Below are positions 2,228 to 53,151 of a stretch of 64,000 bases of DNA, piece after piece; position 1 is the first letter of the stretch, and each line of letters starts with the position of its first letter. The position numbers and the translations under genes are program-made. The notes beneath the pieces were generated by a model. That model was not told the DNA's origin, ran no database searches, and saw only the letters and a list, made by a program, of their open reading frames with translations. This DNA is from Eledone cirrhosa (Eukaryota): the NCBI GenBank assembly GCA_964016885.1, contig OZ024741.1:95790001-95854000 (forward strand), in the 5' to 3' direction.

Positions 2228-2305
<78 letters not shown>

Positions 2306-2434
2306 GAGGTTATATTTAATTTGCTGGGATACAACAAGCAAATATTTTTATAACTGATATAAAGCACTCAACAAATTATTGGAGTAAAAATACAATATAT
2401 TAACAAATGGAAACTATATTTATAAAACCATATT

Positions 2435-2499
2435 TATTTCATTATACATATTTCAAGGACACCAAAGCAAATTATGGTGCGCTTTCATCAGATAAAATA
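2435..2499 (-). ncRNA. Type I hammerhead ribozyme motif (family A, left arm)
   Basis: Reverse complement of 2646-2710. Confidence 0.8.
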
Positions 2500-2645
2500 T
2501 AATATAGATCAGTTTTAGAAACAAATATTGACATACCCTTAAAGAATGCGACCATGTCGGTTGGAAGCTCCCGGAAGCTTCCAACCGACATGATCGCATT
2601 CTTTAAGGGTATGTCAATATTTGTTTCTAAAACTGATCTATATTA

Positions 2646-2710
2646 TATTTTATCTGATGAAAGCGCACCATAATTTGCTTTGGTGTCCTTGAAATATGTA
2701 TAATGAAATA
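2646..2710 (+). ncRNA. Type I hammerhead ribozyme motif (family A)
   Basis: TATTTTAT-CTGATGA-[AAG..CACCA..TGGTG..CTT]-GAAA-TATGTA-TA-ATGAAATA. 8-bp stem I, self-complementary stem III, AUA triplet. Confidence 0.85.
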
Positions 2711-2751
2711 AATATGGTTTTATAAATATAATTTCCATTTGTTAATATATA

Positions 2752-2839
<88 letters not shown>

Positions 2840-2879
2840 GATATTAAACAAATGGAAACTATATTTATAAAACCATATT

Positions 2880-2945
2880 TATTTCGTTATATATATTTCT
2901 GGGATATCATATTAAAAATATGGTATGCCTTCCTCAGACAAAATA
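2880..2945 (-). ncRNA. Type I hammerhead ribozyme motif (family A, left arm)
   Basis: Reverse complement of 3083-3148. Confidence 0.8.
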
Positions 2946-3082
2946 CAATATATAAGCTGTTTTATAAATAATTTTGACATACCTTAGAATAATGCAACTT
3001 CCATTTAAAAAGTTGATTTTTAAATGGAAGTTGCATTATTCTAAGGTATGTCAAAATTATTTATAAAACAGCTTATATATTG

Positions 3083-3148
3083 TATTTTGTCTGAGGAAGG
3101 CATACCATATTTTTAATATGATATCCCAGAAATATATATAACGAAATA
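3083..3148 (+). ncRNA. Type I hammerhead ribozyme motif (family A)
   Basis: TATTTTGT-CTGAGGA-stem II-GAAA-TATATA-TA-ACGAAATA. Compensatory A-U to G-C change in stem I relative to 2646-2710. Confidence 0.85.
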
Positions 3149-3503
3149 AATATGGTTTTATAAATATAGTTTCCATTTGTTTAATATCGTAAACCTACTC
3201 CAAAAACTGTTGAGTGCTTTTATATCAGTTATAAAATATTTACTCGTTGTAACCCAACAATTTTAAATAAAACTTTTGCATATATATATATATATATATT
3301 AGAAAGTGAGGTTTTTTTTACAAAATAAAAGATAACCGAGGTGTCCTACACAAGTGAAAGTATAAGGAAAAAAGATGAAATCGAAAATGCGACTGGAGTC
3401 TTTTTTTTTTAAATTTATATTTATTTGGTTCCTTTACCGGTTTCGCAGTTCTTCTGCTTTTCAAAAGTAGAATTGAGATCGCGAGCCTGTGGTTTTTCTC
3501 ACA

Positions 3504-3591
<88 letters not shown>

Positions 3592-3670
3592 CTTGGTATA
3601 TTTTCTGTTAGTTAATCAACCGACACTAGTATACGCAGGATAGCGCACTCGATGAAATATATATTATATA

Positions 3671-3867
3671 TAACGAAGGAAATGTGGTAAGGAACCAGAT
3701 GGACCATAACGCACCAAAGTACTCAATACTTAGGGTAGTAGAGTAGGTAATAGGAACGAGTAGGACCCCGACGGCTGAGCTCAAGCCGTTTCGACGGCTA
3801 ATTCTGGACTCAGTCCAGAATTAGCCGTCGAAACGGCTTGAGCTCAGCCGTCGGAGTCCTACTCGTT

Positions 3868-3872
<5 letters not shown>
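3671..3872. mobile_element. Fold-back element, family B (arms 3750-3810 / 3812-3872, tail 3671-3749)
   Basis: 61-bp arms around a 1-nt apex. Each arm carries the 3' half of an HHR (GAAA-CGGCT..AGCCG-TC). TA-repeat flanks. Confidence 0.85.
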
Positions 3873-6490: not shown

Positions 6491-7504
6491 GGTATAAGAC
6501 CCGACACATAGATGGGTGGGCTGGATTTAATTTTTTCCCTGTATTTAACTGGTACATTATTTTATCACCCTTAGCTCCAGTAGGACAAAAGATAAGGTTG
6601 ATCTTCGTTAGAAATTTTGTGGAGAGGAGAATTCAATTATATCACACTCCGGGATTTAACTGGTAGATTATTTTACCTATCCTAGAAAGACAAAGGTTAG
6701 GAAGTTGACCTCTGCAGGATTGGAACTCAGAAGGTAATAAGGCGAGATTTAGAAACACCGCCCGGCATTTATTCTGCGCTCTAACGACTCTGCCAGTTCA
6801 CTGCCTTTACAATGTTTATACCATCAAAAGTATCATTACCTTCTCTGTCATTCAAACCAGAGCATGGAACAACCTTCATGTCACCTCTGTGTCAGCTCTG
6901 TGTCATTTCTCTGTCCTCGTCGTTCACCAAAAACACACGAATCAAAACAAAGGAAAAACAGTTGAAAGAAAACTAAACAAACAAAATAACAACATAAAAA
7001 AATAACACAAAACCAAAACAAAAGAAGTGTTGACGGTAATTATCTCATGTCAGTGTTTTCATTTCGTGATTGTAATGTTGCTTGTGTTGGTATTGTTGTT
7101 GTTGCTGTTTTGTCGTCACATCTTTCACCCCGCCCCCCTTCTCCACAACTCCCTGTCGCTAGCTGCTGCTGCTTCTTCTGTTCCACCATCACACATCGAT
7201 GTTGTTGTCATGGGACAACACGCAGAAGGGTGATTCAGTGGTGTAATTGAATATATTATCTCAAACGGTGTCAATAGACGGAAGGTGAACTGAGTGGTTT
7301 GTTTTTCGACAGTAGAGTCGATCGAGGATAAGGGCAGGGAGGGGGGGGGGGGATGAGGAAGTAGTAGTAGTAGTAGTAAGAGTAGATGAAGAAGAAAATG
7401 TAGATGATGATGGTGGTGATGATGACGTTGATGATGATGGCGACGATGATGATGATGATGATGATAAAATCAAGGTTGAATAAGAGAAACATCTTAAAGA
7501 ATAA

Positions 7505-7866
7505 GAACAACAACGACAACAACAATAACTTCAACGACAGTGACAACAACAACAACAACAATAACAATAATAACAATAACAACAATAACATCAACGACAG
7601 TGACAACAACGACAGTGACAACAACGACAGTGACAACAACAACAACAACAACAATAACAACAACAACAATAACAACAATAACATCAACGACAGTGACAAC
7701 AACGACAGTGACAACAACAACAACAACAACAATAATAACAACAACAACAATAACAACAACGACAGTGACAACAACGACAGTGACAACAACAACAACAACA
7801 ACAACAACAATAACAACAACAACAATAACAACAATAACATCAACGACAGTGACAACAACGACAGTG

Positions 7867-7898
<32 letters not shown>

Positions 7899-7938
7899 AA
7901 CAACAATAACATCAACGACAGTGACAACAACGACAGTG

Positions 7939-7979
<41 letters not shown>

Positions 7980-8241
7980 AACAACAATAACATCAACGAC
8001 AGTGACAACAACGACAGTGACAACAACAACAACAACAGCAACAATAATAACAACAACAACAATAACAACAACGACAGTGACAACAACGACAGTGACAACA
8101 ACAACAACAACAACAACAATAATAACAACAACAACAATAACAACAACGACAGTGACAACAACGACAGTGACAACAACGACAGTGACAACAACAACAACAA
8201 CAACAATAATAACAACAACAACAATAACATCAACGACAGTG

Positions 8242-8276
<35 letters not shown>

Positions 8277-8355
8277 AATAACAACAACAACAATAACAAC
8301 AACGACAGTGACAACAACGACAGTGACAACAACGACAGTGACAACAACGACAGTG

Positions 8356-8387
<32 letters not shown>

Positions 8388-8427
8388 AACAACAATAACA
8401 TCAACGACAGTGACAACAACGACAGTG

Positions 8428-8468
<41 letters not shown>

Positions 8469-8730
8469 AACAACAATAACATCAACGACAGTGACAACAA
8501 CGACAGTGACAACAACAACAACAACAGCAACAATAATAACAACAACAACAATAACAACAACGACAGTGACAACAACGACAGTGACAACAACAACAACAAC
8601 AACAACAATAATAACAACAACAACAATAACAACAACGACAGTGACAACAACGACAGTGACAACAACGACAGTGACAACAACAACAACAACAACAATAATA
8701 ACAACAACAACAATAACATCAACGACAGTG

Positions 8731-8765
<35 letters not shown>

Positions 8766-9315
8766 AATAACAACAACAACAATAACAACAATAACATCAA
8801 CGACAGTGACAACAACAATAACAACAATAACATCAACGACAGTGACAACAACGACAGTGACAACAACAATAACAACAATAACTTCAACGACAGTGACAAC
8901 AACGACAGTGACAACAACGACAGTGACAACAACAACAATAACAACAATAACTTCAACGACAGTGACAACAACGACAGTGACAACAACAATAACAACAATA
9001 ACATCAACGACAGTGACAACAACGACAGTGACAACAACAATAACAACAATAACATCAACGACAGTGACAACAACGACAGTGACAACAACAATAACAACAA
9101 TAACATCAACGACAGTGACAACAACGACAGTGACAACAACGACAGTGACAACAACAACAATAACAACAATAACTTCAACGACAGTGACAACAACGACAGT
9201 GACAACAACAATAACAACAATAACTTCAACGACAGTGACAACAACGACAGTGACAACAACAACAACAACAACAACAATAATAACAACAACAACAATAACT
9301 TCAACGACAGTGACG
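7505..9315. repeat. Complex (AAC)n satellite with interspersed GACAGTGAC motifs
   Basis: 1.8 kb of AAC/AAT triplets punctuated by AACGACAGTGAC, with all units multiples of 3. Confidence 0.95.
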
Positions 9316-29362: not shown

Positions 29363-29514
29363 TAGACGGGTGTGTATGATTGTGTATAGAAGATTATATT
29401 AATAAGAGGAATTCCAACTTTGTCTGATTTACTCGTTTTATTTACAATCCTTTAAAATTTATAATGGTATTATAATGAAATAGTATGGTAGAATATTAAA
29501 TGTTAAGTGTTAAT

Positions 29515-29553
29515 TGAACAAGTACTTTCATGGTTTCGCAATCTTCAGGTTCA
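29515..29553 (-). ncRNA. Minimal hammerhead motif (left arm)
   Basis: Minus strand TGAAC-CTGAAGA-TTGCGAAACCAT-GAAA-GTAC-TT-GTTCA. Confidence 0.8.
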
Positions 29554-29643
29554 TAATGTGTGGTGACAGTCAAGTTTGCAATTTTCACAATTTTCACAAT
29601 TTTCACAGTTGAAAATTGCAAACTTGACTGTCACCACACACTA

Positions 29644-29682
29644 TGAACCTGAAGATTACGAAACCATGAAAGTACTTGTTCA
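29644..29682 (+). ncRNA. Minimal hammerhead motif (right arm)
   Basis: TGAAC-CTGAAGA-TTACGAAACCAT-GAAA-GTAC-TT-GTTCA. 5-bp stem I, palindromic AGTACT stem III, weak stem II. Confidence 0.75.
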
Positions 29683-29794
29683 ATTAACACTTAACATTTA
29701 ATATTCTACCATACTATTTCATTCTAATACCATTATAAATTTTAAAGGATTGTAAATAAAAGGAGTAAATCAGACAAAGTTGGAATTCCTCTTA

Positions 29795-29919
<125 letters not shown>

Positions 29920-33574: not shown

Positions 33575-33651
<77 letters not shown>

Positions 33652-33657
<6 letters not shown>

Positions 33658-33766
33658 AAAAGGTTCAGGACCCTGGACCTTTTCCTATTACCCACTCTAC
33701 TACCCAAAGTATCGTGTACTCTGGTGCGTTATGGTCCATCTGGTTCCTTACCACACTTCCTTCGTT
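33652..33766 (+). mobile_element. Family B minimal fold-back plus tail
   Basis: ATAGGAAAAGGT..ACCTTTTCCTAT mini-palindrome followed by the family B tail. Confidence 0.75.
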
Positions 33767-33816
33767 ATATATATATATACTGTAGAAGTGGTTACACAAC
33801 AGTTAGTTCACCATAC

Positions 33817-33854
33817 CGAGAACAATTGTTTCACCTTAGTGGATCCTCAGTTCG
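33817..33854 (-). ncRNA. Minimal hammerhead motif (family C, left arm)
   Basis: Reverse complement of 33943-33980 with 2 substitutions. Confidence 0.7.
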
Positions 33855-33942
33855 TAATGGACATGGTTATACGGAACAGGAAGGACAACCGTACGAACGC
33901 ACATGCGGTTGTCCTTCCTGTTCCGTATAACCATGTCCATTA

Positions 33943-33980
33943 CGAGCTGAGGATCCGCTAAGGTGAAACAATTGTTCTCG
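33943..33980 (+). ncRNA. Minimal hammerhead motif (family C)
   Basis: CGAG-CTGAGGA-TCCGCTAAGGT-GAAA-CAATTG-TT-CTCG. Confidence 0.8.
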
Positions 33981-34476
33981 GTATGGTGAACTAACTGTTG
34001 TGTAACCACTTCTACCTAACTTGTCCCATGGACTGAGTGCTCTACCACTACAGATATTACCTTCCAGTGTTCTACCACTATATATATACTGTATATATAT
34101 AGGGAGAGAGAGAGAGAATCTGCGGTACTGAGACTGAGGAGACCACCAATGATGAGAGCACTCTATACATGGCTAGATGCAGAGGGGGTATAGAGGGATG
34201 TATAATCCCTACTGCGGTGCCAAGCGGTTTCGGCTTGTGTAAGCTTTGTGCCTCCGACATAATTATAGCTAACTCTCAATATATATATATGTATACATGT
34301 ATATATAAAAAAAGAATTTTTCGCTCTACATGGCTGAATACAATAAATGTAATCTGAGTTTTTTGAATATTAATAATAATATTCGATTCGTTTACAATTA
34401 TGCAAACGCCCTCATTTTTAAAGCCATTTCAGTAGAATGAGCCCCTCAATCTTGGTCTTGTGTTGGCATGTAAACA

Positions 34477-41560: not shown

Positions 41561-41595
41561 CATAAGATCAAAAAGATGGTTAAAAGAGTTCCATG

Positions 41596-41666
41596 TATTT
41601 TATTATGCGCATTTCAAAAACAAATATCATCATGCAATAACATTTGCGTTTTCGTCAGATAAAATA
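41596..41666 (-). ncRNA. Type I hammerhead motif (left arm)
   Basis: Reverse complement of 41765-41835, stem I fully Watson-Crick. Confidence 0.82.
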
Positions 41667-41764
41667 GGGAGACATGATATGAAGGTTAAAATACACTTGT
41701 GAATAGTGCAGTTTTAAATCAACACTATTCACAAGTGTATTTTAACCTTCATATCATGTCTCCC

Positions 41765-41835
41765 TATTTTATCTGACGAAAACGCAAATGTTATTGCATG
41801 ATGATATTTGTTTTTGAAATGCGCATAATAGAATA
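41765..41835 (+). ncRNA. Type I hammerhead motif (right arm)
   Basis: TATTTTAT-CTGACGA-..CAAATGTTATT..GATGATATTTG..-GAAA-TGCGCA-TA-ATAGAATA. Confidence 0.85.
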
Positions 41836-41957
41836 CATGGAACTCTTTTAACCATCTTTTGATCTTATGTATTATTTATACTCCAGTCCTACAAACTGTA
41901 GAGTGCTTCTTATCCGATATCTGCATTGCTTTATTGTACTACAATAAAACTCACCTC

Positions 41958-45596: not shown

Positions 45597-45781
45597 AAGT
45601 AGTTCCACAACAGTTAGTTCACCATACCGAGAACAAATGTTTCACCTTATTTGGATCCTCAGCTAGGTCTAAATCTGTTCTCGGTATGGTGAACTAACTG
45701 TTGTGGAACTACTTCTACCAAACTCATCCCATGGACTGAGTATTCTACTACTACGGATATAACCCACCAGTGTTCTACTAT
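45597..45781. mobile_element. Family C fold-back element, short-apex copy (HHR at 45628-45666, minus strand)
   Basis: Arms 45597-45635 / 45676-45714 and the same tail as 34016-34080. Confidence 0.85.
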
Positions 45782-45787
45782 TATATA

Positions 45788-45885
<98 letters not shown>

Positions 45886-52228: not shown

Positions 52229-53151
52229 ATTTTGTTATACTTGGGGAGGGTCATATTGTTGTAATAATATTGCCAGAATTAATAACAGAACACACTCACT
52301 GTCAAAAATACAGATATAATATAGACACAAACACATATATATAGTCTAACAAAGTTCTTTCGTGGCACATCTGCAACATGGTCAGTGGTGCTATTATGTT
52401 TCCTCCTTTTGTATTGTATTTCTACGCCATCTTTATTTAATCTGTTTATTTATGTATGTCGCCTATGTATGTTGTTGTCATGTTTCTGCAAGTACCCTCT
52501 GTACATCTTATGCTATAGACTACGTTTCTAGTTTTACAGTTTATCCGGGAGTTTACTTTACATATAATACATTTCCTATTAGTACCCTTTTAAGAAAACC
52601 CACTGTACTAATAGGAAATGTATCATATGTAAGGTGAATCCCCGGATAAACTGTAAAACTAGAAACGTAGTCTATAGCATAAGATGTACAGAGGGTACTT
52701 GCAGAAACATGACAACAACATACATAGGTGAGACAGCTCGTAGCATAGGTGAAAGGATAGACCAACACTGGGGGGAACTAAAAGAACGAAAAAAGGGTTC
52801 AGTACTATACGAACACGCATGCGCAGAGAAGAAGACAAAAATAAATAAATAAATAAACAGATTAAATAAAGATGGAGTAGACATACAATACAACAGGAGG
52901 AAACATAATAGCACCACTGACCATGTTGCAAATGTGCAACGAAAGAACTTTGTTAGACTATATATGTGTTTGTGTCTATATTATATCTGTATTTTTGACC
53001 ATTGGTCAGGCAATGGTAAACATTGAGGACCGAATAAATTAACTGATATAAAAGATACATAAGCAAAAACCAACCAAACAGTGAGTGTGTTCTGTTATTA
53101 ATTCTGGCGATATTATTACAACAATATGACCCTCCCCAAGTATAACAATAT
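52229..53151. mobile_element. ~0.9-kb fold-back of a deleted PLE (apex ~52586-52604)
   Basis: Left arm is the reverse complement of the right arm minus two blocks. HHR-like CTGACCA-TGTTGCA-AATG-TGCAAC-GAAA at 52915-52952, mirrored at 52350-52387. Confidence 0.88.
52604..52830 (+). pseudogene. PLE Cys-rich linker plus GIY-YIG fragment
   Basis: CTNRKCIIC..NCKTRNVVYSIRCTEGTC..YIGETARSIGERIDQH..SVLYEH. Confidence 0.9.

Follow-up and report, generated by a model that had tools for sequence, protein, structure and literature searches.

Near-perfect hairpins in (TA)n tracts of the Eledone cirrhosa genome: assignment to a Penelope-like element family and probable origin from two separately primed cDNAs

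How do near-perfect palindromes come to stand side by side in a single simple-sequence tract when the two copies are clearly diverged from each other? Two such hairpins lie near the start of the window (the whole 64,000-nt stretch analyzed here, from the repeat-rich, 3.0-Gb genome of Eledone cirrhosa). Copy 1 has 175-bp arms (2395-2569 and 2576-2750) with 2 mismatches (2414, 2552) and a 6-nt loop, and copy 2 has 175-bp arms (2837-3011 and 3017-3191) with 0 mismatches and a 5-nt loop, in agreement with the original observation of few arm mismatches per copy. Each copy carries a one-sided extension, or tail, of ~90 nt (2303-2394 on the minus strand in copy 1; 3192-3281, 90 nt on the plus strand, in copy 2). 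Both tails point outward across the tract between them, and the copies are therefore oppositely oriented, as originally claimed. The TA tracts around them are (TA)14 to the left of copy 1 (2275-2302), (TA)47 separating the two independent insertions (2745-2838), and (TA)10 to the right of copy 2 (3280-3300). Within the element, positions are counted from the end of the tail, which is site A (0); site B is ~90 nt upstream, so that the tail of copy 1 spans site B to site A. The tail-bearing arm of copy 1 (2303-2575, minus strand) covers -272 to site A (2303) of the element 3' end and is the source of the loop at 2570-2575; the tail-less arm (2576-2750, plus strand), which holds both arm mismatches, covers -266 to -92 and ends in ATATAT beside site B, the join being blunt (L031: x -272, y -266). 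In copy 2 (L010), the tail-less arm (2837-3019, minus strand) runs from site B (-90) to -272, is the source of the loop at 3012-3016, and shares a 3-nt microhomology (3017-3019) with the tail-bearing arm (3017-3281, plus strand; -264 to site A).

A genome search with copy 2 returned 1,944 candidates, of which the 40 scored were 99-100% identical; the search with copy 1 returned 1,191, with 98-100% identity among the 40 scored. These samples consist of the best-scoring matches, and young copies are over-represented in them. Since identity within each subfamily is 98-100%, copies 1 and 2 belong to two young subfamilies and represent two independent insertions. The divergence noted between them is real (80.2% identity over 248 nt), but the ~20% gap is a subfamily difference rather than a matter of age. 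The argument originally drawn from identical arms in diverged copies, which come from different young subfamilies, proves little.

Walking upstream led to a parent copy, L061, with a pLTR-ORF-3'UTR-pLTR layout, a long 3' UTR, and a unit of 3739 bp, whose last 265 nt are the tail-bearing arm of copy 2 at 100% identity. The single ORF codes for a reverse transcriptase (RT) with a C-terminal GIY-YIG endonuclease (EN); it is frameshifted in L061 and forms one 681-aa frame in L067. Both carry the YRDD RT motif and the YVG..R..E..N endonuclease motif. L061 has RWR and DKT (RWK/RWR and DKT/DKS in homologues), and L065 contains CNCRDRSKC, corresponding to the CxCX5C linker, as well as CDLC..E and N....CRH, corresponding to the CxxC and CxH that flank the E and N residues of the EN; inspection of the ORF by eye revealed no CCHH motif. 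Altogether, 163 homologues were found, with identity up to ~44%. The RT model (pLDDT 89) has a predicted fold that matches L1 ORF2p/L1 RT and TERT, although Pfam gave no family for the two ORF pieces and a PDB sequence search gave no match. Partial tandems forming the pLTR, 5' truncation, an inverted 5'-truncated copy, and a tail (~90 nt) on one end only are all present in the family; 93 of the 124 tallied tail ends continue into ATATATAT, and 16 are read-through copies. By this motif set, the hairpins are assigned as 5'-truncated insertions of a Penelope-like element (PLE) of the Hydra clade. They represent a new family of a known clade, and their layout (inverted copy plus tail) has already been published for the class.

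The Hydra clade, in the sections of Craig et al. 2021 devoted to it (PMC8557442), comprises C-terminal EN+ PLEs in which RT is followed by GIY-YIG, with RWR/RWK, DKT, CxCX5C, CxxC, and CxH motifs, a hammerhead in the pLTR, (TA)n targets, and a unit under 3 kb. PLEs are described there and in PMC8969392 as having partial tandem copies, a truncated copy in inverted orientation, and a tail on one side, with a tail length of 30-40 nt (PMC8557442). The present family shares the RT/GIY-YIG order, the motif set, the pLTR hammerhead, the (TA)n targets, the partial tandems, the inverted 5'-truncated copy, and the one-ended tail; it differs in its ~3.7-kb unit with a long 3' UTR and in its ~90-nt tail. 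The hammerhead motif listed for Hydra-1_oBim is different, so it is not that family. A non-LTR retrozyme, which would consist of tandem ribozyme-bearing monomers lacking an ORF, was also considered and rejected: these copies are stubs, arranged head to head, of an element with an ORF, and the sole tandem array (L003, G000:C13:38431680-38433400) lacks the ribozyme 5' half. In that array, the final 150 nt of the element occurs nine times in tandem, with (AT)n between the copies, and the unit begins in the TA run where the hammerhead is predicted to cut.

A pattern search among the fetched loci identified a hammerhead of type I layout with a paired stem I in 182 arms. All four window arms carry it, at 2435-2499 (minus strand, tail-bearing arm) and 2646-2710 (plus strand, tail-less arm) in copy 1 and at 2880-2945 (minus strand, tail-less arm) and 3083-3148 (plus strand, tail-bearing arm) in copy 2. 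The stem I pair is G-C in 83 of these arms, A-U in 72, G-U in 25, and mismatched in 2. The swap noted originally does pair as claimed (A-U in copy 1, G-C in copy 2), and such changes are inherited, not independent events. In 84 of the 182 arms, the first pair of stem II is an A-A mismatch, which is characteristic of subfamily 2 and present in the tail-bearing arm of copy 2; self-cleavage of the hammerhead is a prediction, and most copies extend past the predicted cut. At E<=1, Rfam did not list the hammerhead but gave 67 matches, every one below the gathering score and mostly to miRNA models, which fit any hairpin; such stubs could be mistaken for miRNA hairpins or for MITEs. A conserved ACTC..GAGT motif, predicted to form a small hairpin, follows site B in most of 109 arms (2364-2385, minus strand, in copy 1; 3197-3217, plus strand, in copy 2), and its sister motif GCTC..GAGC, present in read-through copies, follows site A in 17 of 18. 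The MFE structure contains the fold of the A-site motif but not the one predicted for the B-site motif.

The outer ends of the insertions are fixed. The 71 subfamily-2 loci include 46 with two adjacent arms, 17 without an adjacent inverted arm, and 8 without a tail-bearing arm. In 40 of the 44 non-duplicate two-armed insertions, the end of the inverted arm lies at -90 to -92 (site B), and five subfamily-2 copies are lone B-ended arms with no partner; duplicates (L158, identical to L062; L024, identical to L023; and ten repeated loci in the apex-chosen hairpin set) were removed before counting. Both sites lie on TA or ATAT, matching the (TA)n target. In raw reads of two other individuals (from one study; reads 92% or more alike), the sequence stops at -90 and continues into (TA)n in 4,490 and 5,216 reads, respectively, and opposite-strand joints occur at 13 listed position pairs; the hairpin structure is therefore not an assembly artefact. 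Long copies were chosen only on the ORF start; among the 22 examined, 12 show an inverted arm together with both of their ends, and every one of these has one A end and one B end, six each way with respect to which arm is longer (p 2.4e-4). For five long copies with a short A-ended inverted arm, a B end on the far side was predicted before fetching and was found in 5/5. Of 21 hairpins chosen on the apex alone, 16 could be classified, and every one of them combines A with B; the 58 mismatches scored for L234 in this set stem from an anchor error. The exceptions are L057 and L055, in which two A-ended (tail-bearing) arms of different variants are joined head to head; these could reflect a single event that used two templates, or else insertions that happen to be neighbors. 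The inverted arm of L023/L024 ends at -142, in the hammerhead TA run, and not at site B. In L191, L193, L203, and L202, the long arm begins within ~12 nt of the upstream site A, and in the first three a short A-ended inverted arm adjoins it, an arrangement close to non-overlapping twin priming on tandem RNA. No informative sites distinguishing the upstream from the downstream pLTR as the short-arm template were present in 12 loci.

When an arm is followed 5' to 3' starting at the target, its sequence is antisense to the RNA, which is what target priming of a cDNA on that strand would yield; this holds for each arm. A single priming event followed by self-priming or snap-back would produce arms of one haplotype and the short symmetric loops seen in L015 and L019, and self-priming on an antisense template is the reading given to head-to-head PLE palindromes in the part of Arkhipova et al. 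2013 (PMC3846280) that deals with the inverted pLTRs of Adineta Penelope. Those elements resemble the present family in their head-to-head inverted pLTR, shorter than the direct one, the one-ended tail, and an Inr-like TCACT in the pLTR; however, the counts obtained here favor two sense-templated cDNAs. A single priming does not account for a second end placed precisely at -90 or for the existence of lone B-ended copies, and it leaves unexplained both the A/B swap between the long and the short arm (12/12) and the inverted arms with sequence absent from the tail arm (22/41). The snap-back of one cDNA alone, proposed originally, fails on the same observations, including the partner-absent sequence in L153 and L143, and single priming in any form appears quite improbable.

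Both arms of an insertion derive from the same haplotype. In 34 subfamily-2 insertions, the arms differ from each other by 0.61% and from other copies by 1.84%; in subfamily 1, an older and more mixed set of 27 insertions, the respective values are 2.7% and 5.8%. Lineage variants of subfamily 2 are found in both arms at 34/34 sites in 12 insertions, compared to 5.0 expected if the templates were independent. Of the 92 lineage-variant sites in subfamily 1, 63 agree between the arms and 29 disagree, many of the latter being C>T or G>A, with one hypervariable site and one poorly aligned copy among them. Private changes are mostly one-armed (49 of 62 in subfamily 2 and 49 of 63 in subfamily 1), indicating a single source for the two arms, followed for the most part by divergence of one from the other. 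Homogenization of the arms after insertion, by gene conversion or cruciform repair, might be invoked for the private changes that do appear in both arms (13 in subfamily 2, 14 in subfamily 1), but with most of them one-armed, conversion is not needed. It is mostly refuted as the main cause: the divergence between arms rises from 0.6% to 2.7% in the older set, variable apexes and the A+B rule remain without explanation, and the idea, also raised originally, has very little probability.

In contrast to the outer ends, the inner ends are variable, ranging from -42 to beyond -3,500. In 22/41 cases it is the B arm that extends further 5', and in 13/41 the A arm; the samples being biased by the choice of query, only the existence of each class counts. 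Differences in arm length of thousands of bases are common, and in L153 and L143 the arms do not overlap at all. Among 72 inner ends for which the end itself had no part in the selection, 22/66 fall between -282 and -259 (9.8 expected), and only 6 lie beyond. A CACTA(C/T) motif, resembling the Inr-like TCACT noted in PMC3846280, stands at the edge of this pile-up in subfamilies with differing upstream sequence. We infer that the pile-up at -260 to -282 marks the RNA 5' end, that is, the transcription start, which would make arms of ~175 bp a common product. A clear untemplated G, such as a cap could leave, is seen only in L106 and L122 of the 16 non-natural 5' contexts, several of which are unrelated.

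The junctions show microhomology. Among 41 joins, 19 are insert-free, and only these were tested, because the exact-match parser mislabels some joins as inserts near SNPs; microhomology of at least 1 nt is present in 17/19 and of at least 2 nt in 12/19, against null values of 50% and 21% (p 7e-5 for at least 2 nt). Several junction inserts are copies of nearby sequence, which is typical of polymerase-theta end joining.

The two window copies have different apexes, as noted originally. The exact apex of copy 1 is unique genome-wide; that of copy 2 recurs exactly at 41 loci, and a third apex occurs at 6 loci. Many copies with one apex had been regarded as the sign of a fixed MITE, and a MITE or fold-back DNA transposon copied whole would indeed give such sharing. 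It would also fit L050 (C21:32476704) and L060 (C5:90446250), which have the same apex and, in the ribozyme core of one arm, the same C>A change (found in 2/27 inverted arms and 0/50 forward arms) despite unrelated flanks and may represent rare whole-hairpin copying. However, the 10 loci examined among the 41 span at least four sublineages, each with its own variants in both arms, and differ in which arm bears the tail, with seven loci of one kind and two of the other. Furthermore, the ends are asymmetric, apexes and arm lengths vary widely, and the sequence comes from an element that encodes RT, being its 3' end, which refutes the MITE for the family and leaves it scarcely any probability. 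The copy 2 apex is a recurrent join, a hotspot at the 5' pile-up: among 49 listed loci in which both arms reach -264, 6 have it exactly, and ~10 more differ mainly in homopolymer length. Variable apexes, same-source arms, and a common apex in several sublineages bear out the original view that the palindrome is made anew at each insertion rather than inherited as a fixed terminal inverted repeat.

The commonest apex, with its 5-nt loop and 3-nt pairing, has the geometry of an intramolecular fold-back. This favors a variant with two primings in which one cDNA snaps back, extends into the sense strand, and anneals to the second cDNA, giving the same end products; the 13 two-armed private changes of subfamily 2 point the same way. 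As a general route it is unlikely: it is inapplicable to non-overlapping arms, the arms often differ in length by thousands of bases, and the private changes are mostly one-armed.

The hairpins are thus most economically read as products of two primings joined directly: each is probably one 5'-truncated insertion made from two cDNAs of one source, separately primed at sites A and B and joined head to head. The enzyme of the element would cut both strands of a (TA)n tract, presumably as a dimer, and one cDNA would be primed from each DNA end at the two internal start sites ~90 nt apart, implying priming on both strands. The template for both would be RNA from a single source copy, likely one molecule rather than two from the same locus. 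Microhomology would then guide the head-to-head joining, with host end-joining as the putative agent and a fold-back step possibly assisting some joins of overlapping arms. The mechanism as a whole is what we infer from these counts, and of the three routes originally proposed, one resembling twin priming fits best (A+B in 12/12 and 16/16). Several observations count against it, namely, the 29/92 disagreeing sites of subfamily 1, the L057/L055 joins, the 17/71 loci without an inverted arm, the 13/62 two-armed private changes (also expected from fold-back or some conversion), the fold-back geometry of the commonest apex, and the unfolded B-site motif. In LINE-1 twin priming, both target strands prime cDNA and the inversion junction has microhomology; the internal site at which the second primer anneals varies, and there is no overlap between the pieces. 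In the present family, by contrast, the second start has a fixed position, and the two pieces, which usually overlap, form a palindrome.

This model agrees with the in vitro behavior of PAc, a Poseidon PLE of the lizard Anolis. In the experiments outlined by Frangieh et al. 2024 (PMC11167929), PAc cleaves and extends each of the two strands, uses two internal start sites that bound the tail, and has no need of ribozyme cleavage; the protein is predicted to dimerize. The two internal RT start sites bounding the tail are thus common to both systems, as is independence of ribozyme cleavage, most copies here passing the predicted cut. PAc belongs to another clade and initiates at RNA without homology to the target, whereas the sites of the present family are TA or ATAT and able to pair with (TA)n; the portion of PMC11167929 dealing with the two sites does not link them to an inverted copy or a one-A-one-B rule. 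A two-cDNA model of this kind for PLEs was not found in the relevant parts of PMC8557442, PMC11167929, PMC3846280, PMC4209133, PMC13282606, PMC8969392, and bioRxiv 10.64898/2026.07.22.740005; older reviews and supplementary figures may hold one. The origin of the inverted pLTRs and one-sided tail is named an open question in the corresponding section of PMC8557442, and two-ended priming would explain these long-puzzling mirror-image ends of the class. It seems somewhat more plausible than otherwise that PLEs in general integrate by concerted two-ended reverse transcription, in which a dimeric RNP would hold one RNA at two hairpin-marked start sites and make one cDNA per end of the double-strand break, with host end-joining fusing the two. 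If so, the tail, the inverted pLTR, and the MITE-like stubs would be products of a single reaction, distinct from both LINE target-primed reverse transcription and LTR integration. The family being young and abundant, its counts (A+B per insertion, same-source arms, microhomology joins) separate the models and yield precise predictions that an in vitro system of the PAc type could address; its stubs also seed near-perfect palindromes across the E. cirrhosa genome.

The right flank of copy 2 (window positions 3302-3500) is itself a dispersed repeat (729 candidates, 90-94% identity), and no second haplotype of the locus (empty site) appeared in a genome search with this flank. Six more long hairpins, with arms of 39-193 bp, occur in the window at 3660-3872, 29395-29802, 33650-34080, 41571-41930, 45597-45790, and 52462-52728; several are next to (TA)n and have a one-sided extension, and by eye they look like other PLE-like families with the same layout. 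Positions 7500-9299 are occupied by a long AAC/AAT-rich tandem array with 156- and 15-nt periods.
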